Shown here piece by piece: positions 1-51,338 of a stretch of 64,000 bases of DNA. A program made the position numbers and the translations under genes. The notes below the pieces were generated by a model, which saw only the letters and a program-made list of their open reading frames with translations, did no database searches and was not told where the DNA came from. Within the stretch, counting starts at the first letter, position 1. Every line of letters starts with the position of its first letter. The stretch is from Tubulanus polymorphus (lineage: Eukaryota > Animalia > Nemertea), in contig NC_134026.1 of the NCBI RefSeq assembly GCF_964204645.1, forward strand, positions 18,138,150 through 18,202,149, in the 5' to 3' direction.

Positions 1-660
1 AAAGAAACTGTTGTACCCAGCACTTGTACAATCCATTCGGTTGAAACGACTACTCAAAGGACTAGCCACAACCAAAAATCCGCTATGTATTGGGCAGCAC
101 TCAACAGACCTGAAATCTATACTCGGTTCCCATTGAATATGGGCATGCATTTCTTAATCGTAAAACCCAACCATGACAACACTACACCGAAAACTATTAC
201 AAGCTTTCAGCATTGCGACTATTTGTATGTCGACGAATTTGTTCTTGAGTTGGCATATTTTACGGATAAACTTTTGGAGTATTGCATCGAGAATCAAAAT
301 GATCTTGAAAATGTTAACATTGTGACAGTGGACAATATTGTTGACATGATTGTGGATAGTTTTGAACAAGAGAAGGACAATTTACCCGCCACTGTAATCA
401 ACGAAAATGATAGCGCCAAGATACAGACAATTTTAGATAAAATCAACGAACAGATCAAATCTAAACTCTTGTGTCAATGTAGAGAATTCAATATCCGAGG
501 AGCACGATTTATAAATCACATATATCTAAAAAAAATCAACCCAATACACTCTTCGGGGCAGCTGAACAGAAAATCATGCACATCATTCCGTGTTCGTTCA
601 GCACCGTTGAGCAATTGTTTCAAGGCGAGATTACGGTTCCCGTTGCCGAATCTCTGCTAG
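1..660 (+). CDS. Hypothetical viral protein, 5' partial
   Basis: Frame is open from base 1; possible frameshift at the A-run near 527-535; AATAAA near 765 and 793. Confidence 0.5.
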   Translation, partial: KETVVPSTCTIHSVETTTQRTSHNQKSAMYWAALNRPEIYTRFPLNMGMHFLIVKPNHDNTTPKTITSFQHCDYLYVDEFVLELAYFTDKLLEYCIENQNDLENVNIVTVDNIVDMIVDSFEQEKDNLPATVINENDSAKIQTILDKINEQIKSKLLCQCREFNIRGARFINHIYLKKINPIHSSGQLNRKSCTSFRVRSAPLSNCFKARLRFPLPNLC

Positions 661-982
661 AAAAACAACGCTGGTGTGGTCATAATATACCAAAGTCCTT
701 GAACAATCTCAGACTTTGTGAATATATAATAAATGTATATGTAAAATCTAAAAACCATTATATAAATAAAAAGATACCATTTATATAAATGAAATAAAAT
801 GTTTATTAGTTCATTTTCGCCATACACGTACAATAGCAATTAAGTTATTATTGAGCCAATCATTTGCACATAAACTTTTGAAACAAATCTGAGTACCCAA
901 ACCTTTTACTGGATGAGGTTTCCACCCAGGTTTCATCATTTCTGTTCGAGGTCCGTCTTGGCCCATTTGGCCTATAACCTCA

Positions 983-1984
983 TCAGCTCCATCTAGGCAT
1001 TTTTTTCAATCTCAAAGACAATACCGGTGGTATTCTAATCTTTCGACTGAAAATAATTACATCTTCCCACTTTTTGAGTTTATCACGCAAATCCATGATT
1101 TTGAATATCGGACCATCACTGGTCACAGTTAGTTCTTTGGTAAAAGGGCTCTTATAGATTAACACCGTGGTAAATTCTTTAATGGGCGATTGAGCCTTTT
1201 TTGTCCAGTGCCCATTTTACAGCAGGTTGAAACAAAGTACCAACATAAAATCCTTTACCAAACTCCCTGTGTGGAGCACACAAGTCCAAATCAACACCAC
1301 TTTGACTTATTTTGTTACCAGCAGTCTGAAACAGAAAATTTCTCGATTTTAACAATTTGTCAAGTTCCTTGGGTATTTGATCATCACTCTTTTTCATATC
1401 GAAATATTTTCTAACTCTGGGTCTGGGTAATTGGAACTTTTCTTATTCAACATGCGCCAACTTTTTACTTCTGTTCATTCACCACCGGCAGTATCAGGCT
1501 CATTCGTAACGTTGTTGTCTGCATCTATCGATTCGAGATAGCACCGTATCCATTCACAAATCGACTGTCTATTGGGTAATTCGGATTCGCCGTTGATTAT
1601 ATAGTTGAATATACCAACAACAGCTTCTATGAACCGATCTGTGAATTTACACTCGTTCAAAAGTTGGTTCAATTTTGTATGGGTATTTTTGCTGTACTTC
1701 ATTTCAAAGTCTATAGCTGTAACGTGCTCAATATCGTCAAATTCTCGCAAAAGTACATTTTCCAGCATACATGATATTTGATGTGTAAAATAATCATAAT
1801 CAAAAATACTCATTTGACCGTCGATGTTCATGTAGTATTCCTTGGGTAGCCACAATGCTTCACAGAGTTCCAGTGATTCGGGGTATAGAACGGTAGACAC
1901 AGACATCCTTACAGTTTGGTTACAAAAGTCAAAGTGAATATTTTGTTTATAAAACTCATCACATGTAATATTTTCTAACCTCAC
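983..1984 (-). pseudogene. DUF3990-like (ART-like fold) protein, disrupted; paralog of 24994-25770
   Basis: Fragments LYPESLELCEALWLPKEYY, then VDLDLCAPHREFGKGFYVG..AVKWA, then WEDVI..GPIF. TGA at 1475-1477 aligns with TGG (W) in the paralog (GGE*TEVKS vs DGPWTEYKS). Confidence 0.6.
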
Positions 1985-2266
1985 ATTTTCTTCGTTTGAA
2001 TGTGTCCGGGGGATATATCATCGTCAGAAGATGATGATATACCACTGGCACAGTTTAAGATTAAACTGATAGAACGCGCGCATAAAACACGCCATCACAT
2101 TCAATATGTCGGATCATTCTTCTTCACAAAAGCACAGTTATTGTCTTTTATGATAATCTAAATTTATTACTCCTTTTTGTGTTTTTTATTCAGTACTAAT
2201 CGACACATTTCCAGAATCTTCTGACGATTCTGTCCTGATTCAACTTGGGTTTGTGCCACGTTCTTG

Positions 2267-2350
2267 TTCATTTCGGCCATGTTCTCACTTGTTTGTGGCA
2301 TGTTCTCGTTCATTTCGGCCATGTTCTCACTTGTTTGTGGCATGTTCTCG
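2267..2350. repeat. Two tandem copies of a 42-bp unit
   Basis: ttcatttcggccatgttctcacttgtttgtggcatgttctcg x2. Confidence 0.85.
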
Positions 2351-2415
2351 TTCTTATGTTTTTATGGATGGGTATAGTCGCTCCGGTCATTTGGTGTTGT
2401 TGATCATGGGTAGAT

Positions 2416-3180: not shown

Positions 3181-4773
3181 CTATTTTCGCAACACACTCA
3201 GTTCAATCTGTCCAAGACCATCACCGCGAGTGATCGACTGAACCCAGCCGTCTTCGTACTTGGAATCAAATTTCAAAGTCATTCTATCATTGATTGCCGG
3301 TACAAGTCCATCGTGGCTCATACACCAACAGCCACACAAATTTTTGATCTTTTTCACAAGTTTTGTGATTTCTTTGGGTCCTGACAGGACAATGTTCGGA
3401 AAAATAACAAACGCGACCATTGTAATAGGTGAACAAGTTAACTTCTCTGATGCATCATCTAATAGCGCCACAAATACTTTTTCGACCGAGTCTTCAGAGG
3501 GTAGAATTAAATGTTTTTTAATGTTCGTCTTGAGAGTGTTTAGGATCTCAATCAACTCGAAATCCTCAACCGAAGCGTGAAATCCTATCATAAAGTTCAA
3601 CTTCGTTTCGATGTTGGGGAATATCAATTGATTTTTCGGCTTTTTCAGCATAATGAGTTTACTTTCTATATCTCTGGGTATATCCTGGTGAACGAGTTGT
3701 GTGTAGAAGTGTACATCCATTTGGTCTTTGTCTAGTTTTTGAATTGCTCTGACTCGATATGGTGCGGAATGGAAATCCTTACGACTCTTTTCGATGAATT
3801 TACAAAGTTCCTTTCTGTTGGAGTGTGTCACTTTTCGCACTCCACGACCCCATGTAGCGCACATAGCTATGTGGTCGTTTTGGGTGGTGGTGTCTTTATG
3901 TTGGTTAGCATGGGTAAACATTCGTACACCGTTGTAGATCATATCCCTGAGCACTTGTTTTTCGTTCGGCTTCAATAGGCCGCTTTCATCGTTCAGAACT
4001 TTATATGCGTATTCAGTCATCTTCAGTTCGACAGCCGATGGTGTGTATTGCTCCGTAAAATAATGAATGTCGTGGTACGGAGTGTTGAGGGTATATTTGG
4101 TGACCGTAGAGAAGTCAACTTCAATGATGATCATCCGGTTAAAGTCCCAAGTTGGCTGATTTATAGCTTCATCGACGCTGTTCATGGGTACGTGTTCGTA
4201 ATTTCCGATAAATTTCCCATCTGCATATCGCCAATGCATGGTTTCGTATTGTTCTGATTTGGTTACACTGTTTGTGAGCACCTTGACACTGCTACGAGTC
4301 CATTGGTAGTTTTCAAACATGCTGAGAATCTCCGGCGTCATTTGCTTGTATTCGTTATCGTGCCGATTTCTAACCAACCTCGATAACAATTCCATAGTCA
4401 AGTCCACACACAGATTTTCAATTTGCCACATGTCGGAAATCTGCAAGTATCTGGACATGTCGTCTAGGGATAAACTCTTCAACAGATCGAACTTTGCAAA
4501 TCCATTGGCTTGTGTGGTAGCGATGGATAGATATTCATTTAGAAAGTTAATATCATCGACGTAGAGATCCGGAGCTTGTATGATGTTGTCGGGTATTTCA
4601 AAGTAGGATGTTCTGATGCGATCGATAAAGTCAATGTTTGATGCTAGGATGTGTATGTTGATGGGTACTTTTCCGTCTACGCATTGAATATGATAGTCCG
4701 TGTTATCGAAATGCGCCACCAACGGTGAAACACTGTCTTTGGACCACGGGTACTGTATCTTAGGTTTTCCCAT
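3181..4773 (-). CDS. Hypothetical 530-aa protein with possible N-terminal BTB-like domain
   Basis: Long intact ORF; TDYHIQCVDGKVPINIHILASNIDFI resembles the start of a BTB/POZ domain (domain call weak). Confidence 0.7.
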   Translation of the reverse strand: MGKPKIQYPWSKDSVSPLVAHFDNTDYHIQCVDGKVPINIHILASNIDFIDRIRTSYFEIPDNIIQAPDLYVDDINFLNEYLSIATTQANGFAKFDLLKSLSLDDMSRYLQISDMWQIENLCVDLTMELLSRLVRNRHDNEYKQMTPEILSMFENYQWTRSSVKVLTNSVTKSEQYETMHWRYADGKFIGNYEHVPMNSVDEAINQPTWDFNRMIIIEVDFSTVTKYTLNTPYHDIHYFTEQYTPSAVELKMTEYAYKVLNDESGLLKPNEKQVLRDMIYNGVRMFTHANQHKDTTTQNDHIAMCATWGRGVRKVTHSNRKELCKFIEKSRKDFHSAPYRVRAIQKLDKDQMDVHFYTQLVHQDIPRDIESKLIMLKKPKNQLIFPNIETKLNFMIGFHASVEDFELIEILNTLKTNIKKHLILPSEDSVEKVFVALLDDASEKLTCSPITMVAFVIFPNIVLSGPKEITKLVKKIKNLCGCWCMSHDGLVPAINDRMTLKFDSKYEDGWVQSITRGDGLGQIELSVLRK

Positions 4774-4944
4774 GCTGGATGGTAAATGAGATGTGCGTCA
4801 TGTGTGTTGAACTATAAATTCTTTGGTGTCTTGTGGCCAAATGTCCGTTTCTGGTCACACACCTCATTTTAGTACTTTTTCGGGTGAGAAAAATATTTTC
4901 GAACTTATAAAAATGTTACTTTTTGTGTTTGTTTTGTTCCGGAC

Positions 4945-5132
4945 TTTGCTTATTTCTCCTCTTGTAACCTTATTTCTCCTCTCGTAACCTTATTTCTCCT
5001 CTTGTAACCCGCACGATGTTCTTTTTCTATGGTCCACAAATACAATTGCAGAGAGTTTGGAATCCAATAATTCCGTTAAATCTTCATCCTTGACACAATA
5101 TTGATATCCAATATAATGGAGAAATAAGCAAA
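4945..5132. repeat. Hairpin element copy 1 (20-bp unit CTTATTTCTCCTCTYGTAAC)
   Basis: Three tandem units at 4949-5008; inverted GGAGAAATAAGCAAA at 5118-5132. Confidence 0.85.
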
Positions 5133-5176
5133 CTCAACCGAACACAACCAAACACCAACTTCAAAGTTTGAATTGA

Positions 5177-5800
5177 TTACAAACAATTTATTGCAGGTCT
5201 ACAGAATGTATAATCAATTGGATTTTCAATACGTATATGATTTTCAATGTCTTTTCTGTTTTCTAGGTTGCCAGGGGTAAGTTGGACGAATTCTCCATCA
5301 ACGTTTTTGTTCAATACCATTGTCCAAGAACGCATAAACTTTTTCGTGTTGGCATCAGCGTGAAAAAACACACCATTGTCCAAAACAATCTGTTTCAATT
5401 CATCATACACTTCTTGAAACAAGTCGTCGTAATATCCATCCATCTCTGTTGTTTTTGCACTGTATACAGAAACAACCAGTTCATGTGTATCAGTAGAGTA
5501 ATGTATCACTATTGGTGAATTCTGGGTATCGTCGTTAGCACGTTTGGCAAATTTCAATGTCGTAAGGAAATCAAACCAAGTCAATCTATCGGTATCATCG
5601 CCGTAAGGTTTTAAGACTAAAATCGTCAACTCCCTTTCATTTACTCGATGTTCGTATATGCGATAAATTCGTTTATTATTTTCATTCCTTAGCGTGTTGA
5701 GATTTTCATTGAGATTCGTATCAAACATTGCATCGGTCATTGGTATGATGACCATTTTACTTTTAATGGGTGTTGGTGTCGCAGGTGCTGCTGCTTCCAT
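5177..5800 (-). CDS. Hypothetical protein (about 207 aa)
   Basis: ATG at 5800 (MEAAAP...) immediately downstream of the polymerase gene. Confidence 0.7.
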   Translation of the reverse strand: MEAAAPATPTPIKSKMVIIPMTDAMFDTNLNENLNTLRNENNKRIYRIYEHRVNERELTILVLKPYGDDTDRLTWFDFLTTLKFAKRANDDTQNSPIVIHYSTDTHELVVSVYSAKTTEMDGYYDDLFQEVYDELKQIVLDNGVFFHADANTKKFMRSWTMVLNKNVDGEFVQLTPGNLENRKDIENHIRIENPIDYTFCRPAINCL

Positions 5801-5820: not shown

Positions 5821-8800
5821 TTACAATTTTGGTACGAAACACAATTTTGTTTGTACCAGGTTACTATTTCTTGTAACGTTTTTTGTCTCTATGTATATCA
5901 CATCATCATCGTCCAGAAAGTCCGAATCTGTACATTGTACCGTGGTTGAAGTTGAGGCTTGAGGCAGTAATGTGGTTGGTGTCGGTGCTGTGACTGTCTG
6001 AGCGGTACCAAACGACATTTTTTCACGAGGGGTATGCAACTTTCCGAATATCTCACTATCTACTGCTCGGTCTTTGACATGGGTAATTGGAATAGTACAG
6101 GGAGTCATGGTTGTCCCTCCATATCTATTTTTTGGAACACATGATATTTCCAACTCCATCAAATCCTGAAAAAACACCATTTTCAGACAGTTGTCAGGGT
6201 TTTTCAGTGATCTGCTCAACTTTTGCTCTAGTAACGGGATTAATTCGTCAATGTACACACATAAACCAGGTTGTCTGCGGACCCAGTGACTTTGTTGTCT
6301 TTCATCGTCTCTTACGATTTCACATGGAATTACAATGTCTTGGAGCGGCTTTTTAAAGTGTAATCGCGACCTTTTAGTTTTCTTGTGATCAAATGTGGTC
6401 GTGTTGACACTGAATGTGGCTGAGTTGAGAATCGGGGTAAATTGTACAACTCTATAGACATTTTTGCCTATATCCACGATATCACGCATTTTTTGAAGTG
6501 CGGATAACAAGAGATCACCATTACATTTGTAGGCGAACGTGTTTTGACGATTTAGACAAAACGAATCGTTGTTGACTAATTCAGAATAGCCATTAACGTT
6601 GTCTGTGATAAACGGCGTGGTCATTGTTTGAATCGTGTACGGGTACATATCAACTATGCAGTAGTCGGGTATGATTGGAGATTTTTTCTTCTGAGTTAAC
6701 ATCACGCGTTCGTTCAACCAAGTGTTGTAGTCTGGTCCGATCGATACACATTTCGGCTCAGATGTGACTTTGTTGATGAAATCTTTTCCGGATTTATGTA
6801 TCGTGTATAAGGTAGAGTGTTGAATTGATATCACGAACCATCTAAAGTCCATCAATTCTCGACCTCGATTTGTGTAGAGTGCCCACAGATCGACGGTCTT
6901 GTGTGTTTCATCTGTTGTGGACAGATTCAACTTGTGCGTGGATAGTATCGGTGAAGAGTTGCCATCCACGCACTCTTCTGCCCACTTGGTAATCAATTGA
7001 TCTGTGGTGGTGGGTTCACCGATAGCCGCAAAATCATCAAAAGTTGAAATTGCGTAGTTACCAGACATCATAACTCGCAAACACATCCGATCCATAGGGT
7101 ATGAGTCCAAATTGTTCATATAGTTGAGTGCCCTTTCACTGAGATTACCAACTAAGTTGTTTCTGAGTTGTTTTCGTTTTATTTCACCATCTGTCATGGA
7201 CTTGGTCTGTTGAATGGTTGAGAATATTTTGCTATGTTTATTGGCAATAGCACCGTGTTTCATACTGCTGCCTATGGACGATGTTTTTTTGTCTTCTATG
7301 GTGAGTATGAGATGTTTGGCTTCTTCTTTGAGTTTGTTCACTGTCATTATGGATGTATTCAACATCAAAGTGTCTCGCATGTCGGTCATTTCTTTCATAG
7401 CCGATCTGAAAGTTCTGGTTTTTCGGTATTGGTCCGGGGTATACTTGAACCCGTATCTTTCTGAATCGGCTACCATCGTCTTGTCAAATTTTGTCAAATC
7501 AGCTGAAGTCAACTTTTTCATTTTCTGACTCTCTTCTTTGCGTTTTATTTCCTCCTTTTCTATCGGGCAGTTGACCAGAATTGTGTCCAACAATTTCTTC
7601 TGAGTACCGCTAATCTGTGCTTGGCACGATCTGGTGAGCGTTACATACATCGGTGCCTTGTCTAGGGGTAAATTTTTCTTTTTACATTCCTTGGCGGCTG
7701 CTTTCGTTGCGACAGTTTTCATTTTTTCCATATCACCGACTTTTTCTTTGCTCTGGACTTTGCTCGGGTCTAACAGTTTTAGACCACAGCAGAGTTGTTG
7801 GCGCAGGTCGTCTTTTTCCTCGGTAGATAATATTTGGTTTAACTTTGTCTCTATTTCATCTATGACTTCTTCGATGAGAATTGTTCTGTAGGCCATATGA
7901 TAGACTTCTTCGCCGTAGGTAAGTGAACCGATAGGATCTCTGTCCAGCAACAGGTACATGCTGCCGTACTGCATTTGAGTTTTTAGCTTGGTTGCAGTAT
8001 TTTTCATTCCGACTAGCCCGGCAACGTGAAACGATACAACATATTCTCCTCCACCACCCTTTTCCACCTTGGGTCCGCAGTAATTTTTCTGTCCCTGGCA
8101 GACTGTTCCACGATGAAAGTATTTTTCGAAGAGGAATTTACTTGGCGCCTGATCTCTGTTGGCAAATTCCAAGTACTCGTCAACGATTGTCAAAGAGTGG
8201 GTAATTATGGTCTTTGTGCCGCTTTTCTCAGGGAGGCCAAGTTTTTTGGCAAAAGTCGACAAGTCGCTAAATTCTAACTCTGAACCGAAGAGTAGAAAGT
8301 CAGAATCTGTATCGGCATTGGCAATTTTTTCCGCATACCATTTTTGAGTTATTTTTGCAATATAGTCTGAATACCACGTTTGCCATATATGTGCCATTCT
8401 AAGAGTTTGATTTCGTCCGTACTTGGTAACAAGTGCCGATATGAGGGCCAACATGACACCACAAAATCCATAGACTATATTCAGCAAAAGTTTTAAAGCC
8501 TTTTGATTTTGATCGTAGTTGGCCTTTTTGAAGGGATCTTTTTCGGTCGCCATGAGTCGTTTAAAGTGTAGTCTGTTGCCCAACATATCGTCACAGGTGA
8601 AACTTTCGATGGTTTTGTATTGATCAGCTTTTATTTTTGCCACCACCAAGTTGACGATATTCCCATCTAAATCGACCGTAGTTAACATCTCCATGTCGTA
8701 GTGAACTCCCCGTTTCAAATTATTTCGCTTGATGTACTCCATCGTGACCATACCGGTCATGCCAACATTTTCCTTCATGATTGCCCTTGGGTACATGTTG

Positions 8801-11800
8801 GTGGCATCGACACAAGCGCAAGGTGTGCCTATAAACTCGGGTACTGCTCCTCGAATGCCGCCAGGTTGTTTCAACTGTTCAAAGTGTTTTATGGCGTCGT
8901 ATTTGAAGCCCGGTTTCTTCATGTCTTCTTCGGTAATTTTCTTGGATGTGCCAGGCATGACGGTTTTATCGAACCAAGTCCCATTGTTGGCTAGGACTCC
9001 ACTGACCATGCACATTGGCGCGTCTTCGTAAATCGTCCGCGGTGGTTGCACCGTTTTCATACAGACTGTTGTGGTGAAAGCCAAAGATTCCTTTTGGATG
9101 TACATGATGGCGGGTAGTAACACATCGATCAAGTTGTACTCTAGGATGATGTCGGTTTCACCGTTCCGATAAGTATCCAATAGATTCGTGTACTTTACTT
9201 TTTCGTGTTCCAATTTCTTTATGCCCAGTTGACGAAACGTGGCTGTGGATAAATCAATCATCTTGGCGGCATTCTGTGCCACCAACGGCATCATGTCCAC
9301 ATAGGTGCTGTTGTTGACGGCAATGTACTTGATTCTTTTGAAAATATCGTTTACGCCTTGCACACCTTCTATGGCAGCCATCTGTTGGGTTTTTTCATCT
9401 TCAGACAGGTATCCTTCGTCCTCAGGATCATTGGCAAATTCCTCGAAAGCAACATCAACACAATGATTGTCCATGTCATCGAAAAATACGCTATCATCGT
9501 CGCTATTGTCAGTTGTAGTATCGCCCTTGCGCCGTCTTTTACTCGTCGTTGTACTGCAGCTTGTAGTGCTATCGACCGATTCGTAGCCACTGATCGTGTT
9601 GTTATTTAAGCCACTCATCGAGGTTGAAGCACCGTTTTGAAGAAGTCGTTTTTTACCCGACGGATTGTTGCTGCTAGTGGATGAAGGTGCTCGTTTACGC
9701 TTGCCTGTGGATTTTTTGACAGCACCGGAACTTTTTTTCGATCTGGTACTTTTCCACCACTCGTATGAGACCTCTCTGGGTATATCGGGTGGTAGAACGA
9801 AATATTTGACGAAATCAGCCGCTTCCTTGTCAACTTCCGAATTCATGATTTCCGTCAGTTTCGTGGACGTGCCACCAGCTATGCGTCGATTACCTCTGAT
9901 CATTTCCCAGTCGCGTTTTCTCTTGTCTATAACTTTTGCTTGTTCTTCACCGTTGACTTTGAAGACCAATTTTGCCTTGGTATCCATTCGATGTGATAGA
10001 CAGAGGTGGAATGCATTGTTGAACATGCTCTTAGGTTTTGTGATTTTGTTGGCAGTTTTATTGTTGCGTTTTTGCTTCAATTCTAGCACGTATTCCTTAG
10101 GTTCAATTTTGCCGCTAACACAGGGAACCGTAGCCCGCATTCTATTTTCGAAAACACTCCAATCGAAACAAGTACTGTTGTAACCGATCAGTATGGGACA
10201 GTCTCTTAGATAGAGCGTCATTTTTACAATCAACTCTGCTTCCGTGTCGCATTCTTCAATAAAAACCGTTTCGTTGGGTATCATGTTCAAGTCGACTTTT
10301 TTAAGAAACGCATTAAGTTTCTCTTGCACCTCTTCATCGTCTGGATCACCTTTTATGTGGAGTTTTACATCTTCGATGATTTTTTCCAAGTCCCCACTAC
10401 CTTCCGTTTTTTGTTTTGGTGGAGGCTTGCCGGTTTTTGGATCATTCGGCGGCTTGACTAGGAATAAAACATGTTCTTGAAATGTATAGTTGCCTTGTGG
10501 CGTTTTCTCGTGATTGAACTTGGATGCTACCGCAGATATGATTGGATCACATTGTGATGTGGGTATGGCATTTTTTTCAAAGCCTGTTTCCAAATCGATC
10601 GACACGCACTCTAAATTGGTTACTATCGTCTTGGCAATTTCTTCTCGTGTTTCGTTGCGTTGTTTTGAGACATTTTTGTCTTCTAACGCGACTATCTCTG
10701 TTCTCCAAAACGTAGTGGCCACATTTCGTAGAGCTGATGTAATTTCTACAAGTCTCAGCCGGACTTGGTCGATAATATCAGAGGTGACAATGCATTCTGC
10801 GTTCAACACACCACTTCTGCTAGCCATACTGCTCATTTCAAACACAAAATGGGAGAAGACATCGTCAGATTGGTACAAGTTGACATTTTTCGTAAGTGGG
10901 TGCAACACTTTACGTTTCAAGTCCTTGTCCCATGATATTATGAGAGGTTCTGCAGCATCGTTTAGTTCATCTCTCATTTCTTTCAACAATTCGGCTAATT
11001 GGTGGACTTGTCTTTTCATTATATAGCCGGAAAGCTTTCTCGTATAATCCCATTCTTTTCGTTTGTAGTTGATAGAGTAGTCAACATCATCTTCGGTGAA
11101 ATCTGCCCCAGCGTCTTCAAAACGCTCGGTTACGTTGATTCGTTCGGTCTCAGCCTTGCGCCGAATTTCTTCTCTGTAAACTTTAGTGATTTCTTCGTTC
11201 ATTTTCTCAGCATCCATATGATACCAATGTTCGGGTATAATTTGGGTATCGTCGTCATAGTAGACTTCATCAGCGCCGAGTGGATCTTTGACATCGTTTT
11301 CACAGCACAGATCTATAGTCTCGGCCAGCTTTCTCGCTAATTTCGTCAATAATTTGCCCTTGTACGTGTTCGGTTCAAGTTGACGAAAATCTAATGAACC
11401 CAACAGCTCATTTTCTTCCTCATCGATGTCCATGCACTCGGAGTCGTCATTTGGCAGCGGTTCTACAATCTCAATCTCCCTATCGCTGTAGGGAAACGTG
11501 ATGTCTTTGTAGTAGACATGACTTTGAAAATATTTAATTTCATCGTCTTTTTCACGTCGAGATTTAATGTGGGGTAAAGTCGCATCAAACGAAGACATTG
11601 CCTCTTCGTTATAAAAGCCGTGGGTTTGGGTATTGTTGGCAGATGTGTTTTGATTATTGTCTCCATTACAAAGTGTCTCGTAGTCCCAAGTTTTATGTTG
11701 GTCAATTTCAATTTCAGAAGAGCATTGTTGTTGTCTGGCAGTATCTCTGCGCATAACACCTATCGGTTTGGTACTTTTCGAAACCATGTGACGGGTATAG

Positions 11801-12760: not shown

Positions 12761-13483
12761 ATGGGATTTTTACCAAATCGCAAATGGTTGATTGAGGTAG
12801 ATGAATTGCAAAAGGAGCATTTTCATCGCCCACCACCAGCACCACCACAGATACTGGATGATGACGATAACGATGCCGATGACGAAGATGCCGAGTACGA
12901 TTTACAAGAAATGCAGGCCGCCAACTCTGTGTGCAATTACTTGAACAGACTTCGCTTTATGGCAAACATTGAATCTCTAACTGTAAAGCATGTAAAAGAC
13001 AATATAATGCAGTATAACTCGGCAATCACATCGCCGATAACGCAAAGGGATAGGACAATGTCCAATTCAGCATCGTCGCTTACCAATCCAACGACACCGA
13101 TTAACACTATCAAAACGGCAACTATCCCAAAATCGGCTGTACGTACTATCGAAGAATTTGACTCGGCGTTTACCCACATCGTAAAGAACGTTTACAATTT
13201 GGAAAATATATCGGATATCTTTGTTCGTGGCAGCAGAGACATGGACAGTAATCTTCAATTATTGTACGAGATTTTATGTGATTTCTCTGCTTGGATAGAC
13301 TCGTCGTGTTACTCTGAATGCAAAGACTTTGAGACACTGCTACACCGCAGTAAAATTAACTTTTTCTCGCAAAATGCCCGTATTTTAGGATCACTGCTAT
13401 TGGGTATGGTGATGGACTGTGATCACGAATCTGTAATGCCAGAATGCAAAGAACTGTATGGACAGGCTATCGAAACAATGTAA
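12761..13483 (+). CDS. Hypothetical protein (240 aa), divergent from the polymerase
   Basis: Intact ORF, AAAATGG start context, AATAAA near 13521. Confidence 0.75.
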   Translation: MGFLPNRKWLIEVDELQKEHFHRPPPAPPQILDDDDNDADDEDAEYDLQEMQAANSVCNYLNRLRFMANIESLTVKHVKDNIMQYNSAITSPITQRDRTMSNSASSLTNPTTPINTIKTATIPKSAVRTIEEFDSAFTHIVKNVYNLENISDIFVRGSRDMDSNLQLLYEILCDFSAWIDSSCYSECKDFETLLHRSKINFFSQNARILGSLLLGMVMDCDHESVMPECKELYGQAIETM

Positions 13484-13642
13484 TAACATTCACACAATTA
13501 ATTTTTCTCAAAAGTAGATAAATAAAAAAACGTCAAATCTCTGTGTTATATGTTGTGATAATAAAATTTATTGTTAATTTATGTTACAAAAAATCAGCTT
13601 TTTATTTCATTTAACATTTTGTACAGGTCATTTTGTCATCAT

Positions 13643-15343: not shown

Positions 15344-15390
15344 ATAGGAAATATTTGGTAGGGTTGTTCGCTCGCTAATGTTCGCCCAAA

Positions 15391-15497
15391 TTTGCTTATT
15401 TCTCCTCTTGTAACGTGTGAGATAAAATTCTCGAACAATGACTCACTGACTTCCAGGTTACAAGAGGAGAAATAAGGTTACGAGAGGAGAAATAAGC
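15391..15497. repeat. Hairpin element copy 2
   Basis: One forward 20-bp unit at 15395-15414 and two inverted units at 15457-15496. Confidence 0.85.
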
Positions 15498-15643
15498 TAC
15501 AAAGTCCCGACATAGAAAGGCAAAGCATAGACACACTATAATATAATTTTCATTTTTACACATTTATTATTGAAATATAAAAGTATAAAAGTATGTACAA
15601 GATTATTTTTACACATTTTACAATTCATGTTCACAATTTACAA

Positions 15644-17665: not shown

Positions 17666-18020
17666 TTCGTAACTTCTGGAACTTGAGAATAATTAAAAAA
17701 TTGCGTGAGATGTTGTCTGTCCGAGTAGATGAATTGAAAGTGAGAATGGTGCAATTCGTTTCATTAAAACCAAGTCCGTAAGTTAGAAAAATATTTTCTC
17801 ACCCACAGACATTCTCTGTTAACTTTACTTGTGTTACGAAAAAAGGTACCTCACCGTACATGTAATGTTAGATTGTTACATTTGGGTTACAAAAGTTTAT
17901 ACCTCACCAAACCATGTATTTAATCAGTTCGTTTTTCTCACCAGCCATCATTCCATTGGAATACTCTCATCTGAACACACACGTCCACAACCCAGCAGTT
18001 ACCCTGGCCAAGCTACAATA

Positions 18021-33256: not shown

Positions 33257-33908
33257 GACTTTGTGACATTGCCTATGTATCTAGATATATTAATATATAT
33301 ATGTTTTTCATGGGCGAGTGATTTGATGCGTTATTCGCGTGTAAGGGATTACGATTTCAGACCTGATTGATTTGATCCGTAAATGATTTGAGGTATGGGT
33401 GAGACGTGAATGCTTCAATGCTTGAAAAGCATATAGACCATGAATTGTAGACACAAGCGATTATTTGAGACATAAAATATTTCATCCGCGATGTGCGTGT
33501 AGAATATGAATTGGAGAAGCAACTATGATTTTAGGCGTGAGTGATTGTAGGTGTGATTGACATGTAGACTATGGATTGAAGAAGCGACTATGATTTGGGA
33601 CGTGAGCGATTTCAGACGTGAATGACATGTTATAACTTCTTGGCTCCGGCAAGCGGATTTATCAAAAATTCTGTGTTTGTGGGGATTTCCCAAATCATGT
33701 TGGTGGTAACACGAGTACAAATTTCAGCATAAAATAGATTGTCCTGGTTTCTGAAATTTCAGTATTTACTAGATATTGATATTCACTAGTGTTACTATAC
33801 ACGTTTACATCAAATCTACAAGAAATGAACGACAATAAGTATATCAACAGCACACACAGAAAACATGCCTAAAAGGTCGTAGACTATGGATTGAAGATGC
33901 GACTATGA

Positions 33909-39303: not shown

Positions 39304-40659
39304 TCACTTTGTTCTATACATCCCTCGAACAATATCATAACATCTTTTTTCTATGATATTCTTATCGTGTCCGTACAAAGTTATGAATTGTTGAAGTACC
39401 GAATTGTTCATTTTTGTACGCACGTCCTGAATTCTAATATTTTTCTTCTTTATTTCATTCTTGAACAAAGCGGCAAGTTCTTCTTTCAAATTGTCAGGTA
39501 CTTTATGCTTTTTGTGTGACTTTGATGTCGTTTTTCTGTGTGACTGTCCTGCTCCTGCATTTTTGTAATCGTTTGAATCATTCTTAACCTCACCATCATC
39601 GACATAATCTTCGTCATCATTATCATTGTCTGTTCCATAATCATCGTCCATTATTTTAGCTTTCTTTTTGTGTGCAATTTTTTGTGGTGTTTTTTCATGT
39701 GATCGTCTAGCTATCGCGTGTTCGTTGATGTAATCATCATCACTCTCCATCATTGTATCGTCCATAACACCATCTACTTCTACATCATTCTCTTCATTAT
39801 CCACTAATTCATCGTTATCAATTTCGTTACCTACATCGTCCTCGTCATTTGCGCCACGTTCTTCTTCACGATGTTCTTCGTTCACTTCTTTTTTGATTTT
39901 ATATTCTGCTTTTTTCCCTTCACACATTAGTTCTTTGTACTTGGCGTCTGTTTGCTTCAGATTGTGGCAACTGCTTTGTAGGTGGGGACCCAATTGTTTC
40001 ACAAGCTTGGGGCAGTCCGCCACCGGACACTTTGTAAATACCGTTGATCTGTTGACCAACGGAATCTTTTCCATTTCGTCCTTGTGTTTTCCCATATTCT
40101 GAAACAAAAGACAAAATCACTTTAGTCTATACGGTGTGAGTTTAAATCTCAATTATTTTAGACGTGATGCGAGATGAAATAATGAAATCCATGTGATTTT
40201 AACCGCGAATGATATTAGACGTGATCAGGATTTGATTTACATCGATTACGATTATCAAGTTTGATTCAAAACGTGAATGATTTCAGACGTGATTTGAAGT
40301 TGGACTTTAACCACTCCACGTCGGGAACCGCATATAAGCGTACTCTTTACATTTTACTGGTCTAACGCCAGACGATTTTACTTGTAATGGGGGGAGGTCT
40401 CGCAAAAATTATCTCCCCGTTAAATATATAGTATGAGTGTGAACCGATAATTATTTTAGACATGATTTGAGGTGAAGTAATGAAATCCATGTAAAGTTTG
40501 ATTCAAAAACGTGAATGATTTCAGACGTGATTTTCTACCTACCTTGAAGTCTTTTCCGAATAATGTTATAGTTCTTTCCGTAATGCGATGAAAGCTTTTC
40601 AGGTGGCGTGGAAAACTCGAAGCTATGTCTTTCTCACAAAGAACACAATATTGCTTCAT
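39304..40659 (-). CDS. Spliced double zinc-finger protein lacking the recombinase domain: exons 40659-40543 and 40098-39304
   Basis: Phase-0 intron (AAG|GTAGGT, TTTGTTTCAG|AAT) joins in frame; CVLC..FPRHLKSFH and CPVADC..LGPHLQSSCH match the YR1/YR2 fingers; acidic linker follows. Confidence 0.8.
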
Positions 40660-42889: not shown

Positions 42890-42976
42890 ACTTGTTGTCC
42901 AGGCATTTTGAAATGATACACATAGTTTTTATAAAAACATGGTGAGGAAACTATTTGTACCCAGAAAATCTAACCA
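42890..42976. repeat. Inverted repeat partner of 49908-50006 (promoter-like sequence plus ATGCCTGGACAACAAGT)
   Basis: Reverse-complement match with a few mismatches and one indel. Confidence 0.85.
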
Positions 42977-43121
42977 CGTACCAAAGATATTTAGAAAAAC
43001 TGACGTTTTACTGCACAGGCTGCATTTGGGTAACAAAATGAATGTCTATGGAAAGTCTCTACCGATTCGACATGTGGGATCAGAGAAAATTACAAGTCCA
43101 AAAAATCCCGCGCCGTCAACC

Positions 43122-43315
43122 ACTGTTTCTTGTTTTAGGAAGCGTGGATGCGACACTAGAGCTAGGCCACAACGGCCCTGAGTATGACAAGACATAATGT
43201 CCCAGCCCGGCAGGGCCAAATCGTGTAAGTCTTGTCGAATTACCAATGTTATAGTGGCTTAGCAGCGGCAGAGTTGTGTTTCCAAAGTTGAAAAATGAAT
43301 AGTTCCAAAAATGAC
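43122..43315. repeat. About 195-bp direct repeat, copy 1 (copy 2 at 50049-50242); 5' part also inverted at 43496-43552
   Basis: actgtttcttgttttaggaagcgtggatgcgac...aatagttccaaaaatgac at both sites. Confidence 0.9.
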
Positions 43316-43619: not shown

Positions 43620-44990
43620 GCATGTGCACATATCAAACATTTGGTCGAGGAACCACCTTGTTCTCCTCATACCATTTCATGAAAGGTGCAATATTTTTTA
43701 AAAACTCGTCCGCTGGAACGAAATGTCCAGCATCACTTTGTTTTTCAAACAAGTCCAAATCTCGTCCATTTATTGCAAAATGTTATTTTGTACCCAAGAA
43801 AAAACGTGATTCCTCACTAACCTTTCAGACCAATGTTCCAAGTCGTTGTAGAACAAGCGTAACCAAAATAAGCGTAGAGTGATTGTTTTGTGGTAAACGA
43901 CACAAATGCCAAGTCCAAATACATGCCGGTGTTGTAGTCGACCGTAGACTTTCCTTGTCGGATAGATTGAAGTTCTCTGTTCGATCAGAAATTGAGCACG
44001 TTGTACAACGCATTCGTATTCAACTGCGGAGCCGTAATCCACAGACGATGTTCCGATTCGTGATAATAGAGTAAATGACAGGGTAATTCACCGTTGTCGT
44101 GATTTGCCGATGAAGAAGATACAACCCTAGAGCTTTCACCTTCGCCGTCTTCTACTCTCCTTTTAAAAAAGCCGAGTGGTGGTTGCCTAGGAACGATATT
44201 GGTCTCAATTGGTCCCTCGTGAAATATAACACCGCATCCGGAAAGATATCCTCGCACGAAATTGTGTAGAGGAGGAGTTTGCAGATTTACTTTTAGTTTG
44301 TGATTTCTCATGAATTCTATGGTATACATTGGTTTTTGGTGGTCCAATAAGTTGAATTTAGTCTTGATGTTGAACGTTTCCACTGCCAGACCAACGTACT
44401 GTAATATTTTATGTTGGGGTAACTTTTTCGGCACACACGTGATTTCGAGATATTTGCGTAATTGTCGAATATCAATTTGAAAGCCGGGAGGAGAGTCACA
44501 GTCAGCAGGGGTAGTAGCGCCGGCAACGTCGGTGGTTGGTGGAGAAGTTGGTGCCTGTTGATGTGCGTTGGGATTACTTGGTGGTTCTCTTCTATGTTTG
44601 TGGTATCGGTATTCGAGTTATCCACCAGTGTATCTGCGTCTGCGTTCTCTGTATTTGAGTTATCCGCGTGTGTATCTACGTCTACGTTCTCGATTTGTGT
44701 CTGAGACATTGTTGTCGAGTCTTGAAGATCCGAGGTTTTAAGTTCTGGCACTGGTATATTTTCTTCCTGCTCTATTTGACAAGTAAGAATAGCATCAACA
44801 CACTGGGTTAGATAGTTATCCAAAGTTGCGGAATCCTTCTGCGTAGAACTAACGTACTTTGGGGGTAACAAAGACTGTGTTGCTGACTGGTTTAGTTGAG
44901 TTGGTTGAGTTGGTAGTGGTTGGTGTTGCTATTTGGGTAAAGATGGTAAAAACACCTCGTCGTCGTACTCGAGAATCTTCGTCACGAACA
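43620..44990 (-). pseudogene. Frameshifted hypothetical gene
   Basis: Successive overlapping minus ORFs 44317-44871, 43985-44434 and 43770-44042. Confidence 0.45.
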
Positions 44991-45620
44991 AAGTCAGTTA
45001 TCCTGTAACCAGCAAATTTTTTCCACGTCTAACCTTTATTTTTTATTTTCGAACTTGTGTCCAAGACTCGTGTCGAGAGAGTACTATGGAACTTTGCTCA
45101 GTGATCACATTTAAATACAAAATTCGAGTGAGAATCTTATTAAAACCTAACCAAGTTTTTTCACCACAGATATTTTCTCACTACTCAACTTTACATTTTT
45201 GGACACATTTTTTCAGCAGCTCGAAATAGAAATCCCTATCTATTTTCTTGACAATTTGCTCCCTTGCCGAACAGACCTTGGTGATCTACAACCATCTGAC
45301 CTCTGGGAAGACAGGAAGACGAAGCCTACTTGGAAGACGGGAAGACGAAGCCTGTTGAACTTGCAGAAGTTAGCTCTTGGTGAGATCGCTGAGAGGAGAG
45401 TGTCGAGTCGGATACCTCGAGATGGTAACTTTTTTGATAGGGAAAAAACTCGCCTAATTTTTATATAACATATGATATCATTCACCAGAAAATCACGCCG
45501 CGATCATATGACTCTGATAGAGTTTTGTACCCAACTTTTCTCACCGGAAACTCAATTCAGTCTAACGTGTTTTCAGACGTGTTTTCAGACTTGATTAAAG
45601 TTAGTACTTGAAATAGTTTT

Positions 45621-47525
45621 TCACTCCCACGACTTGATAATTTCCAAGTTTTTCCTCACCGTCGTGATAGCAGAAATTATCTTGTTTCCTTTGCCGCGAA
45701 CATGTCCGGCCATCACCGCAGCTGGGTTGTCGGTGCAGTGTTTGAATGGAAGTCCGGTGTTCACACCGCTGTAAGTGCGAACATTTGGCGGCGGACCTCT
45801 ATAACTATCACCGCTAATGCTCATTCTGCTCATGCTCGAGACTAGATCTTTGCTGGCATCTTTATGCTTGACGACGGGTACGCTGTCTAAAACTCTTTCC
45901 ATGAACTCTGTATGATTGCTAGCACCGTAGTGTGATTTGAAATTGGCCAACAAGTCACTTGCGGACATAGCCAAGTCTTGGATGTCAAACCCGATGCACA
46001 AACCGTACACAATTCCCAATCGGTTGAGACATCTAAACGAACTTGTGTCTTCTGTTGGTTTGTCGGCTCCCATTATGGAAAAGAAGAGGGATTTCATATG
46101 TGGCTGTTGGGCGTTATAGACAGCGGCCTGCTCGTGCATTTGTGTCATGAAGTCACAGTTGGGAGTAAGCTTGACGGGGATTTCATGTTCATTGTAAATG
46201 CCCGTAAATACGATCTCGTTTGCCGGCGAGTCTGCGTTGAACACCATGATCACGGCTTTGTGATGTCTAACAAAAGAACTACCTTCAGTAAAAACGCTGC
46301 CCAATTTTTTTGTTTTCTCGCCACGCTTCGATCATGAACTGCATGAAGGCATTTTTCGGATCAATCACAGAGAGCAATTCTGCTTGCTTCTGCGCGGTGA
46401 GTCTTGGTTTTGCAAAAGTTTTCATTTCAACCAGTGCTAAGGTATCTGGACAATCGTTGCTTGTGCTAGACATTAGTGGACTTAGCGCGCCTGTATCCTT
46501 AGTGCATCTAACCAGTTGTGTATCGGCAATATTGCAAACTTTTTCTCGATATTCTCTTTCTCTGCTGATCGTGGTCACGACACCATCCTGTGTGCTAGCC
46601 ATCATAAACAGACCTTTGTTCGACATTCTACCGCCCAGGTACAGATAAAGGGGTTCGTTGCAGAAATCGCGCATCAACAACTCGACCATGTTGGGTAGTA
46701 GCAGATCAAAAGCAATCTTGTGAAGATACGTTCCCATTGTCATCGCTTGATTGGTCGTCATGTGTTTTAGTGATATTTTATGCAAGATTGCCTTGCTGCA
46801 TTCAGCTTGACATTCAGACATCTTGTCGTCTATGATTTTCTTGACTTGATCAAAAGTCAGCTTGTTGGCTTGGGGTAAGGCAACTTTGAGCCAGGGGATA
46901 TTTTTAACCTGTGCTTCCAATTAACTGCTGCCCTTTTTCTTGATTGACCTCGATGCAACGTAGAGAAAAATCTTTGTCCAGTTTGCAAAACCTTGTTATA
47001 ATGTAATACGCCTCTAGATTCCTGTTTTGAGCGCATAGTTTACGAATCTGATCTTTGTTTACGCCACTGTTGTAAAAACCAGAACCACCGTTTACGAATG
47101 CAAGATTACACGCACGCAGCGAGTAAAAATACAATTCGTATAAGCTCTCATAACCACCAGTGGAGTCTAAAGCATTGACAACTGCCGTTGTAGCAACAGA
47201 AGCCTGGGTAACTTTGGGTTTTGCTCCGCCGTGCGAAGGGGTAATTTTAGATGCCGGTGAAGCGACTACATCTACGGGAACATTCCTTTTTTGGGCAGCG
47301 GGGGTAGTAGTCATCAATTTTGGGGTATTTGGTGTTACCTTGGGTGGCACATAACCTCTAGGCAGACCGGCAACAGCTGGGGTAACGGTAGCAGTAGCTG
47401 GAGTCCGACCACCTCTTTTATTGCTGCCTGATTTATTTTTCCTCTCTTCTATCTTCTTGACCATTTCCTCGTAGGACACAACCCCCTGAGGCATGCCACT
47501 CTTCCATGATTCCTTGTCAGCCATG
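45621..47525 (-). pseudogene. Probable single gene of about 630 aa split by two frameshifts
   Basis: Three minus ORFs overlap by 17-20 nt; the second and third begin at TTG; one shift is in an A7 run near 46305-46311. Confidence 0.6.
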
Positions 47526-47877: not shown

Positions 47878-49689
47878 ATGGATCTTATCTCTCAACTGCC
47901 CGAAGAGGCCAAGAACAGCAGATTTGATGCCGCTGCTACTATCATCCTCTACGAAAACATTGCTCCCAATGTGGATAGTCACTTGAACTTTTTGTTTTTA
48001 ACACACTGCAACCTAAACTTGCAAATGACTTCTAATCTTACGGATATTATTTCTGCTATGGTTCGTAAAGGAACGTATACATACAGCAAAGTGGTTGAAA
48101 TATGTCAGGATATGGCAAATAACGTGGCACAACTGCTAGTGAAACAAGCAAAAGCCAAATGTGGCAACTACAAAGAAGACATAATGTCAAATTCTTCGTT
48201 CATTGAGTTTACCGAATCGATAACCGCACCAGACTATCTACACCCGATGTCAACCATTTATCTGGACTATGAAAACGAATCTGCCGACGTGGATACGAAA
48301 TGGACAGAAAACTATTACAATAAACTGTCTGCGATTGCTGAACGCATATCACGCATATCGACAAAGAAGGAAGTTCAACTTGCATTTGCGCTTTGCTGTG
48401 GATTCTATGATGATTTTGTGAAAAATACCAGTAGTCAGGCACAAACATTTAAACACGTGATTCGAAAAATGGTAACTTGCGACAAAGCGCGTGAACGACA
48501 TCGCTTGAATACCCAACTGATCCATTCTCGCTACTGCAACGTGAACTTTATGAAAAAGGTAATCTTGGCTATCCAAAATCACATTAATGATAGAAAAATG
48601 AAAACTTTGGTTACGCAAATGTTGAACTTTACCGAAGTTGAAATTAACGAGAATCGCATTAATCGCATTAGACGTCAAGCGCAATCACTTGCCGAGAGGA
48701 GACACCGCGAAGAATGCGAAAGGAGAGATCGTGAAAGGATAGAGCGCGAGGAACTTGAGATAAGAGATCAGGAGGAACGTGAAAGGAACAGATACCATGT
48801 GTCAGAGAGCGATTCTGAATCGGAGAGCGATTCTGAATCGGAGAGAGATTCTGAGGCGGACATATACATCAACTTGACGCAATCCGGCATCGAAGAAGAA
48901 GGAGAGGATAACTCGTTGGTTAGTTCTGACCACTCGATTGATCCATTCAGTGATGAGTTACCCGACCTGATACCACCGAGACGCCGCCGACGTGTTACTC
49001 CACGGAGAACAGCTACACTAACTACCAAAGCTGCTGGTACCACAAACCCATCATCTTCAGTGTCGACATCTAGAGACAATAATAGTAGTAATAATATACC
49101 CATGACTTCTAGTGGTTCCACGAGCGCACGTACTCTGGTAAACGTAACTGCTACTTTGCCAGGCGCAGACACGTTGTTGAACGCTATGAACAGTTATGGA
49201 TTTACATCTCCTGCTACATCTTCCTCTGGATTTACGTTCGTACCCTCAACAACATCATCAGACGTCTCAACGTCTCAACGCACTGTTACTCCTAGACGAC
49301 CCATCTCTGCTGCTAGTGGTGTAGCTACTCGCTCAAGAACAAACACTATTACCCAACCAACTACTGGTAGCAGCAGCAGCAGCAATGCGACTAACTCTGA
49401 AGAAGCGCGAAAGAGAAAGCATTATCACGAAGAATTTGGTAAGCAAAAGATGCACAAGGCCAATATGAATACTAAGATTTCTCCCAAAGACATTAGCTCT
49501 GATTTGGGAAAGTTATCCAAAGAACAATTGGAATCTAGACTTTTGTGTGTGTGTTGCACAATGGCCGCTAGAAACATTGTCAACTCGTGCGGTCACGTAA
49601 CTTCGTGTGACCAGTGTATTCTCAAGTTGGACAAATGTCCTGTTTGTAAGCAAGAAATTGTATCTAGAGTCAAGTTTTATGATTTGTAA
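47878..49689 (+). CDS. RING-HC finger protein, putative E3 ligase, 603 aa
   Basis: C-terminal CVCC..NSCGHVTSCDQC..CPVC of IAP-type RING spacing; TATAAAA near 47760. Confidence 0.85.
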   Translation: MDLISQLPEEAKNSRFDAAATIILYENIAPNVDSHLNFLFLTHCNLNLQMTSNLTDIISAMVRKGTYTYSKVVEICQDMANNVAQLLVKQAKAKCGNYKEDIMSNSSFIEFTESITAPDYLHPMSTIYLDYENESADVDTKWTENYYNKLSAIAERISRISTKKEVQLAFALCCGFYDDFVKNTSSQAQTFKHVIRKMVTCDKARERHRLNTQLIHSRYCNVNFMKKVILAIQNHINDRKMKTLVTQMLNFTEVEINENRINRIRRQAQSLAERRHREECERRDRERIEREELEIRDQEERERNRYHVSESDSESESDSESERDSEADIYINLTQSGIEEEGEDNSLVSSDHSIDPFSDELPDLIPPRRRRRVTPRRTATLTTKAAGTTNPSSSVSTSRDNNSSNNIPMTSSGSTSARTLVNVTATLPGADTLLNAMNSYGFTSPATSSSGFTFVPSTTSSDVSTSQRTVTPRRPISAASGVATRSRTNTITQPTTGSSSSSNATNSEEARKRKHYHEEFGKQKMHKANMNTKISPKDISSDLGKLSKEQLESRLLCVCCTMAARNIVNSCGHVTSCDQCILKLDKCPVCKQEIVSRVKFYDL

Positions 49690-50048
49690 AATGTAACAAA
49701 TGTATGATTTCAAAATTGATCCATGTGAAAGCTATGTAATATGAGATTGTATTCAATTATTAAATTATATATGCATTCTACAACAAAACATGGCTTGTAT
49801 TTTTGTTCTTTTGTGTTTCATTGTATACAATGAGTTTTTCGGGTACGCAGACAAAATTTATGGTTAGACAGACAGAAGTTAGTTGTATTGTGCTGCATTG
49901 TACAACTTGGTTAGATTTTCTGGGTACAAAAAGTTTCCTCACCATGTTTTTATAAAAGGTATGTATATCATTTCAAATCACGACACAAAATGCCTGGACA
50001 ACAAGTGATGGATTCTGGTCAGTGTGTACCAACATGATCCACCAGTAA

Positions 50049-50242
50049 ACTGTTTCTTGTTTTAGGAAGCGTGGATGCGACGCTAGCGCTAGGCCACAAC
50101 GGCCCTGAGATTGTCAAGACATAGTGGTCCAGCCCGGCAGGGCCAAATCGTGTAAAGTCTTGTCAAATCACCAATGTTACAGTGGCTTAGCAGCAGCAGA
50201 ATTGTGTTTCCAAGTTGAAAAATGAATAGTTCCAAAAATGAC
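50049..50242. repeat. About 195-bp direct repeat, copy 2
   Basis: Matches 43122-43315. Confidence 0.9.
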
Positions 50243-50634
50243 TCGAACTTTGAATCACGTACCAGATCATTCACGTCCTGAATCATCATCTCAAATCATC
50301 ATCCCAAATCATAGACTCGTGTGAATCAAGTCCATGATTCGAATTCAGATCACGTCTGAAATCACAGATATTTCACCAGTTCATGATTCGAATTCAGATC
50401 ACTTCTGAAATGACAGTCACGTCTCCAATCACAGTATGTTTGTCAGAATAAATTCGGTTCAAAATGTGGGCCCAGCGATCGGCGCCAAATACCCTGGCTC
50501 ATTTCTTTATCTATTAGATAGCAATATGATTCTGTTCGAGAAGTCGTCGCCTCTACATCTAACCCGAACACTATGCCAATGATGTCAGACAGTCAAGCCA
50601 AGTGGCATCCAAACCAAAAAAAGTTTCAAATACT

Positions 50635-50890
50635 CACAAAAAGTGCTGTCCGGTTAGGTACTGCTTCAACGTATTCGAACGATTAGACAAACACTTACAG
50701 GCCAAACCTCAAATTCGCTATTTCCGGGAGATCCCAAATATCATTACTATATGAAAATAGGAAAATATGCCGGGAAAGTCAGTTCTCCTTCGACCAAAAG
50801 TAAACAGGGGCTAAGATGAGCGACATGGTCTTCAAAATCATCTCCGGACAAGAAATGACCGAAAGAGATATTGAGGATGACGTCGAGTGA
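50635..50890 (+). pseudogene. Internally deleted zinc-finger YR remnant (YR3), inverted relative to YR1/YR2
   Basis: CCPVRYCFNVFERLDKHL..FPGDPKYHYYM followed closely by AKMSDMVFKIISGQEMTERDIEDDVE*, matching the YR2 finger and C-terminus; flanked by AATCACGTC motif clusters (50250-50435, 50995-51146). Confidence 0.8.
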
Positions 50891-51338
50891 GGTCAATTGT
50901 CATAACAAAACCGCCCGTTAATTACAAATAATAACTTGTGAATAGACTCATCGGAACACCATGTTCGAATACTTTCGAATGAATGAAAGAATGATCAAAT
51001 AAATGATCACGGTAATTATCACTAGTCACATTGCTAATCACATATGAATCACGTCGATAATCACATGAATCACGTCGATAATCACATATGAATCACGTCG
51101 ATAATCACTCAATCACGTCTCATATCACAATCACGTCGGAAATCACTTTTGGGACAAAAAATGACATGTTTTTTAAAAAAAACAAAAGACTCAGAAAAAA
51201 TCAATTCTCGCGCAAAAAAATGCGTTTACCCATTAGAAAAAACCCGAAACTCTATTTTAAGATAAAATTTGCGCAGAAAACCGTTGGCTAGAGCGCTCAA
51301 CACGTCACGTAGAAAAATACCAAAAATACCAAATGACC

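Follow-up and report, generated by a model that had tools for sequence, protein, structure and literature searches.

The window studied here (a stretch of 64,000 nucleotides from the nemertean Tubulanus polymorphus, contig NC_134026.1, positions 18,138,150 to 18,202,149) seems to hold the right-hand part, 51 kb long, of a genome like those of invertebrate herpesviruses, with genes for tyrosine recombinases (YRs), joined to a degenerate TTAGGG tract. We lean modestly towards the reading that this is a herpes-like provirus which targets the telomere motif and that a resident YR does the integration, as the anatomy of the junction suggests. A more ambitious version, to which we give slightly less than an even chance, is that of a prophage-like herpesvirus lineage whose own YR integrates and excises at a TTAGGG-centred site, with near-identical recent copies in at least two host species. 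An earlier note on this DNA had proposed a herpes-like virus encoding its own YRs over positions 1-51150; it missed the right end, since the element stops at about 51339-51348 against the degenerate tract.

The last bases of the element (51296-51348, plus strand) contain a candidate recombination half-site, made of a hexamer at 51333-51338, four bases, and a TTAGGG at 51343-51348. After 51338 come degenerate units of TTAGGG, TTAGAGGG and TTAGTG over 1,739 bp (51339-53077, plus strand; 65 TTAGGG, only one perfect tandem pair), which are our candidate target. In run X10 (raw reads, 12% of the run, from another sample and study with the same species label, species A), 20 reads depart from the reference at 51348, with an agreement of 0.74, and other reads run on into the repeat; in run X1 (species A, possibly the source sample) a contig departs at 51350 and takes another course. 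Four letters on, the majority cell of the departing X10 reads contains the reverse complement of 51333-51338, by which the TTAGGG at 51343-51348 would be centred in a symmetric 6-4-6-4-6 arrangement. Tyrosine recombinase sites have a 6-base core between inverted arms. With about 15 plausible offsets, the chance that one of them shows an exact inverted hexamer is, by simple arithmetic, about 0.4%, and we infer that the departing reads continue across an end-to-end junction. Another X1 contig, diverged and at depth 31, follows the window over 51068-51150, omits 145 bases and rejoins at 51296, from which it follows that the last 50 bases or so are kept in a related element. The terminal 30-mer of the element has no match in the viral contigs scanned.

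The tract stops nine bases short of the GTGAGT donor, facing it, of a CxC5/KDZ-transposase-associated exon (53087-54013, minus strand; Pfam E 2e-11, match 53069-54013), and because it adjoins this splice donor it is predicted to be intronic in a gene of a KDZ-type transposon. Since this exon and a neighbouring 132-bp tandem array (54076-54815) are as undepleted in CpG as the virus (53087-56000), the insertion target is probably itself a young mobile element. The tract could also be explained as a viral terminal repeat, in the manner of human herpesvirus 6 (HHV-6), Marek's disease virus (MDV) or acipenserid herpesvirus 3 (AciHV-3), with integration by host homologous recombination, the YRs resolving concatemers or being mere passengers. 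This would agree with the direct contact between tract and element end, and with passages of two papers in which herpesviruses with TTAGGG arrays integrate with no known integrase (PMC10175614, PMC12031113). We nevertheless hold it to be unlikely: a perfect array, as expected of such a repeat, is not what the single perfect pair in 1,739 bp represents, the repeat is abundant elsewhere (last-bin depth in X1 of 1,283 versus about 90) and follows the splice donor of a KDZ gene, and the reads depart abruptly, behind just one TTAGGG.

The enzymes that might act at this site are encoded among more than 20 virus-like ORFs (open reading frames). YR1 (29572-31224, minus strand) is an intronless gene of 550 aa whose product has two C2H2-like fingers together with core-binding and catalytic domains, which is the architecture of a C2H2-bearing YR. 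YR2 (33909-36794, minus strand) is predicted to have two exons, separated by an intron that contains 16-bp repeats; its main ORF (33909-35405, minus strand) matches Phage_integrase in Pfam (E 1.3e-7), and from splice signals its upstream exon is predicted to end near 36660. The two proteins are 40% identical, both align with six homologues, and both keep the motifs NATR, HKT, R-K-S, MKH and TYD and the catalytic R-K-R-H-Y set (R357, K389, R474, H499 and Y508 in YR1). The earlier note was thus right about two full-length YRs, and its count was short, truncated copies being present at 39304-40650 and 50563-50890. The first, YR3 (minus strand, two predicted exons), has N- and C-terminal YR-family parts without the catalytic domain; the second, the relic YR4 (plus strand), consists of the zinc-finger and C-terminal pieces of an inverted YR2-like gene, flanked by the same 16-bp repeats, a family which marks the regions of YR2, YR3 and YR4. 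Two further repeats link the YR3 flank to the right end, a 195-bp direct repeat (92%; 43122-43315 and 50049-50242) and a 100-bp inverted one (42890-42979 and 49905-50006), both very deep in organism B (run X4).

A fold search with the structure model of YR1 (mean pLDDT, the predicted local distance difference test, of 69, and near 90 in the core-binding helices) brought up XerA, Cre and lambda integrase (E 4e-5 to 4e-4), and no close viral YR was found for it in BFVD, where the top ten hits are only distant integrases at 10-14% identity. Among 4,933 candidates, five full-length, single-ORF homologues of YR1 were found in other assemblies (42-66% identity); no YR-related locus was found in the viral contigs or prokaryote genomes scanned. 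One metagenome contig of 1.84 kb has a YR2-like gene at 67% identity, with a splice-acceptor-like start and no neighbours. A 797-aa single-ORF YR homologue (P0008) lies on a contig of 208,141 bp, similar in size to a malacoherpesvirus genome.

These data also bear on a composite origin, in which a large transposon with a YR (at about 28-51 kb, its cargo including BIR and RING) joined a herpes-like genome much as piggyBac did in Teratorn, so that the YR would integrate, could move without the virus, and would not be an old viral gene. We find this rather unlikely. The predicted introns in YR2 and YR3 and the 16-bp repeats common to the four YR copies speak for it, as do the nearest Atlas clusters of the YRs, which are eukaryotic hypothetical proteins (commonest Chordata or Mollusca), and the existence of microsatellite-specific CryptonV elements, cited in a passage of PMC8869645. 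On the other side, the ORFs of the right-end block (43.9-49.7 kb) are intronless and 75% coding, GC3 and CpG of YR1 resemble those of the other ORFs, and the five homologues just mentioned are full-length and of a single ORF.

The reads give two different answers on this point. Reads or contigs from five of 15 listed runs were mapped, run X5 (short low-depth pieces) being left out; contig depths are not copy numbers, and only ratios within one run are used. In X10, YR1 (depth 49-50) and YR2 (42-43) are no deeper than the ORFs at 15.7-21 kb (42-58), with only a few reads from a diverged YR1, which argues against the composite origin and, for this run, against independent dispersal of YR1, a possibility that the earlier note had raised. 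In X4, the YR-bearing contigs are the deeper ones, those with YR1 six to seven times deeper than the contig of inner ORFs, and YR1, YR2 and the right-end genes together three to seven times, as a mobile YR element would predict; internally deleted proviruses would yield the same pattern. In organism B, the surplus of the YR-bearing part may come from deleted proviruses, from related strains or from an independent element. The residency of YR1, proposed in the earlier note from its packing against a BIR gene, thus stands well in species A and less well in organism B. The stop codon of YR1 lies 112 bp from the ATG of this partial BIR-domain ORF (29040-29459, minus strand), and contigs of X1, X2 and X4 span the BIR-YR1 junction, the X4 contig (depth 25, versus 34 for the inner ORFs) with seven differences in 509 bases.

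Part of 42.8-51.3 kb is present in nine runs from seven studies, three of them with more than half of its words. On 38.7-51.4 kb, 3,033 of 3,455 reads are at least 99% alike and variant sites stand near 40-55%, which, together with undepleted CpG, points to several young chromosomal copies. It could be argued that we are dealing with an episomal or infecting virus, joined to host DNA by assembly through a shared repeat: no mapped read or contig crosses the 1.74-kb tract, many X10 reads depart at the element end, and CpG is not depleted. We consider this quite improbable. A DNA-transposon-like insertion of 1,542 bp (21753-23294), with 17-bp terminal inverted repeats (TIRs) and a TAT target duplication, sits inside the element, as do dispersed short repeats; the near-identical element, TIR insertion included, is present in three samples of species A; and further X10 reads run on past the end into the repeat. 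X10 covers the TIR element at a depth of 37-40; some molecules lack the insertion, a joint that leaves it out being present in four of four mapped runs (five reads in X10). The sequence that follows the short repeats varies widely (agreement 0.46-0.48), as expected of dispersed host repeats.

The herpes-like part of our reading comes from the family B DNA polymerase (5821-12480, minus strand), an intact ORF of 2,219 aa which trees place in the invertebrate-herpesvirus group. The family B polymerase of the earlier note is confirmed by Pfam matches to DNA_pol_B (E 1e-15) and to the exonuclease domain (E 7e-8). With residues 560-1620 as query, four proteins were found among 4,734 candidates, three of them at 41-47% identity; a profile of the window and these three close relatives matched 782 proteins at E<=0.001, of which 33 reached E<=1e-30. 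The tree of 73 rows (the window, its three close relatives, 39 top matches and 30 of 55 long generic matches) has one group of 43 rows, with support of 100, which unites the window with Malaco herpesvirus 2 (DBA11578.1), a 90% cluster containing the polymerase of Malaco herpesvirus 4 (DBA11701.1) and a herpes-like polymerase of Capitella teleta (ELT95180.1; the scaffold is described in a passage of PMC5552708). The organism is known for three of the 23 group members looked up, and all are herpes-like. On 31 of the 73 rows, the Malaco herpesvirus 4 cluster comes out as the sister of the window group with support of 99, and it does so again, with 99/98, under a mixture model on 17 rows. An approximately unbiased (AU) test rejects its placement inside either generic set of family B polymerases (p-AU about 1e-52 and 1e-55), and an origin from a host polymerase is rejected, the best solved structure, pol delta, scoring only E 1e-10. 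Judged by its sequence, the polymerase therefore groups with those of malacoherpesviruses, its exact sister position being less secure. No polymerase-related locus was found in the viral contigs or metagenomes scanned.

Two observations on these polymerases are of interest in themselves. The N-terminal modules (aa 8-274 and 315-634) are swapped in order in the two closest homologues (P0001 and P0002), and three others (P0003, P0013 and P0014) have them as in the window. Also, about 40 herpes-like polymerases of public assemblies, found as profile matches, fall in one well-supported group, which implies many undescribed invertebrate herpes-like viruses.

Several points weigh against our reading, and the first concerns morphogenesis. 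The earlier note had seen a terminase-like exon in the ORF open at the window edge (1-660, plus strand), of which we can recover only a Walker-B-like string, YLYVDEF, at aa 74-80. There was no terminase match in Pfam, PHROGs or Atlas, none in PDB at E<=10, none among 592 longer-protein candidates, and the structure model (pLDDT 32) was unusable; with six tests failed, the terminase identity is left unsupported. Nor did the ORFs scanned with Pfam and PHROGs in the right-hand 51 kb, the rest of the genome lying outside the window, yield a HK97-fold major capsid protein, portal, maturation protease or helicase. The herpes-like identity advanced in the earlier note holds on the polymerase, whose trees support it, and no morphogenesis gene adds to this, so that herpesvirus membership is a matter of one gene. 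Even there, the AU test does not reject a tree with the window group as the sister of all the remaining herpes-like rows (p 0.186), and the phylogenetic comparison that the earlier note proposed brought a herpes-like grouping from rows among which there is no identifiable nimavirus, alloherpesvirus or mirusvirus reference.

Other points concern the recombinase and its site. The first catalytic His of tyrosine recombinases usually stands in an HxxR motif; it is replaced here, YR1 reading T-V-L-R. The end-to-end reading was spotted after the fact, in a single majority cell of 30 letters from mixed reads, and the left end lies outside the window, so that a telomere motif there is deduced only from loose read ends. 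The contig depths in X4 (216 for YR1, 116 for YR2, 147 for the right-end genes and 34 for the inner ORFs) are uneven, and a joint at depth 169 skips BIR, with 25.0-27.6 kb nearly uncovered, a deep contig which would also suit the composite origin. Read mapping was confined to parts of the window other than the polymerase region, so the link between polymerase and YR1 is that of the window itself. Finally, the change to AT-rich, CpG-poor DNA occurs at 56 kb and not at 51.3 kb: G+C is about 36-47% up to 56 kb and 28-36% over 56-63 kb, and CpG observed/expected (4-kb bins) is 0.9-1.25 up to 56 kb and 0.35-0.5 beyond.

With these points in mind, the integration by a resident YR that we favour could proceed as follows. 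The viral genome would circularise or form head-to-tail units, creating a short end-to-end junction centred on TTAGGG; YR1 or YR2 would bind the inverted hexamers on either side and exchange strands there, so recombining the junction with a matching telomere-like host repeat. Repeated events of this kind would give several near-identical copies, of which the one in the window would have inserted into a repeat within an intron of a young KDZ transposon. The YR itself was probably captured from an animal family of YR transposons, as proposed for nimaviruses. The junction fits site-specific insertion, and it is on its anatomy that the YR-mediated integration suggested in the earlier note is based.

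The part of the element in the window is densely coding over its first 20.7 kb and in the right-end block, and looser in the middle (28% coding). Long intronless ORFs cover 83% of the first 20.7 kb (1-20723). Besides the polymerase, this stretch has an unknown ORF at 1475-1906 (minus strand), paralogous to that at 24994-25620 (37% identity, E 7e-30), two unknown intronless ORFs of 530 and 207 aa (3181-5800, minus strand) and four more of 240, 562, 673 and 952 aa (12761-20723). A DUF3990-like gene, broken over three frames (814-1442, minus strand), is below cut-off (E 2e-4). A transposase identity for the 530-aa ORF was not accepted, the PHROG matches being too weak (E 0.002). The 562-aa ORF (13643-15331) has, by eye, about four hydrophobic segments and no Pfam match above cut-off, and is possibly a membrane protein. 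A 20-bp repeat family (4949-5128, 15395-15496, 21561-21640 and 23601-23641), mostly intergenic, in both orientations and with raised read depth, possibly represents promoter- or origin-like viral repeats.

In the middle region, the deoxynucleoside kinase (dNK) of the earlier note comes down to the 5' part of a P-loop NTPase/kinase-like gene (20951-21121, plus strand), interrupted downstream by the TIR element: only generic P-loop matches were found, and the 25 families listed, out of 29, do not include dNK. The BIR domain, also claimed there, is present in part and scores below the Pfam cut-off (20.4 versus 22.9 bits). Of the host insertions that it reported, long interspersed element (LINE) and miniature inverted-repeat transposable element (MITE) alike, the TIR element is clear; the likely LINE 3' fragment (33109-33330, minus strand) has no Pfam match, and is presumed to be such from a sequence motif and raised depth. 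A nest of short repeats over-represented in reads (23731-24679) includes a near-perfect palindrome of 250 bp (24244-24493, 98-bp arms), a MITE or an origin-like hairpin, and a galaxin-like cysteine-repeat ORF follows (25921-26592, plus strand; Pfam E 7e-20). The right-end block has unknown intronless ORFs (43985-47524, minus strand) and a 603-aa ORF (47878-49689, plus strand), whose C-terminal C3HC4 RING (Pfam E 2e-6) bears out the RING gene of the earlier note. The motif GGGTACAAA, with A/T-rich flanks, recurs between right-end genes (42956, 43789, 45526, 47585 and 49922). Beyond the tract, the host flank (61227-62590 and 63002-64000) has fragmented ORFs with a cysteine-protease-like motif, and a 68-bp satellite.

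BIR and RING genes are also found in ostreid herpesvirus 1 (OsHV-1), a likeness to the window. CryptonV elements are small and YR-only; they resemble the window in having a YR and repeat-specific insertion in animals, a likeness by description. The Malacoherpesviridae-like genomes (MalacoHV1-4, described in part of PMC11092209, the Capitella teleta and Branchiostoma elements, and BelcheriHV-1) have the polymerase group in common with the window, whereas the polymerase core is only 29% identical to those of Malaco herpesvirus 4 and relatives. Integrated herpes-like copies in invertebrates are reported without mechanism in the relevant passages of PMC12373286, where BelcheriHV-1 is chromosomally integrated, and of PMC5552708. 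The endogenous nimaviruses (majani-, pemoni- and clopoviruses), as described in part of PMC10871703, resemble the window in their C2H2-bearing YRs, insertion in a telomere motif, reads running end to end, BIR genes and multi-copy state. They are another class of viruses and insert in (TAACC)n, in contrast to the herpes-like polymerase and TTAGGG of the window, and the YRs are alike by architecture. Affinity to the wsv514-type polymerase of white spot syndrome virus (WSSV) was not seen, on the indirect ground that the nearest named relatives are herpes-like (3 of 23, with no identifiable nimavirus row), and nimaviral core genes and per os infectivity factors (PIFs) have no Pfam match in the window. 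From its sequence, then, the element would work like a telomere-inserting nimavirus and, by polymerase, is not one.

AciHV-3, HHV-6 and MDV are integrated with TTAGGG at their ends, like the window, and have perfect arrays where the window has a degenerate tract and YR genes. In PMC12031113, AciHV-3 is described with 1, 2 or 373 TTAGGG between genome ends, two contigs having one or two hexamers between the ends and one empty site having just one; its main text, as far as available, does not mention a recombinase. Teratorn, like the window in our reading, is a herpesvirus genome with an acquired mobile-element enzyme for integration (a passage of PMC10175614, which lists as integrated herpesviruses only HHV-6, a tarsier herpesvirus and Teratorn); it is an alloherpesvirus with a piggyBac DDE transposase, of which Pfam finds none in 1-51338, as opposed to a tyrosine recombinase in a malacoherpes-like genome. 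A preprint (bioRxiv 10.1101/2025.04.19.649669) mentions, at keyword level, unspecified mobility genes in deep-branching Herpesvirales, and our literature search, with subscription journals and Rosani 2023 outside its scope, found no published YR-integrating herpesvirus.

With this locus, the entry of herpes-like viruses into invertebrate chromosomes gains a candidate enzyme and, for the crossover, a short candidate site, and the question of their integration therefore becomes testable in a plasmid assay. If the prophage-like version is true, no herpesvirus before this one would have had a site-specific recombinase dedicated to it, and the single-TTAGGG junctions of AciHV-3 might be explained by such an enzyme. 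The locus would also provide a natural eukaryotic recombinase aimed at the telomere motif, and would represent a third route of herpesvirus integration, beside telomeric repeats and piggyBac, converging with that of nimaviruses.

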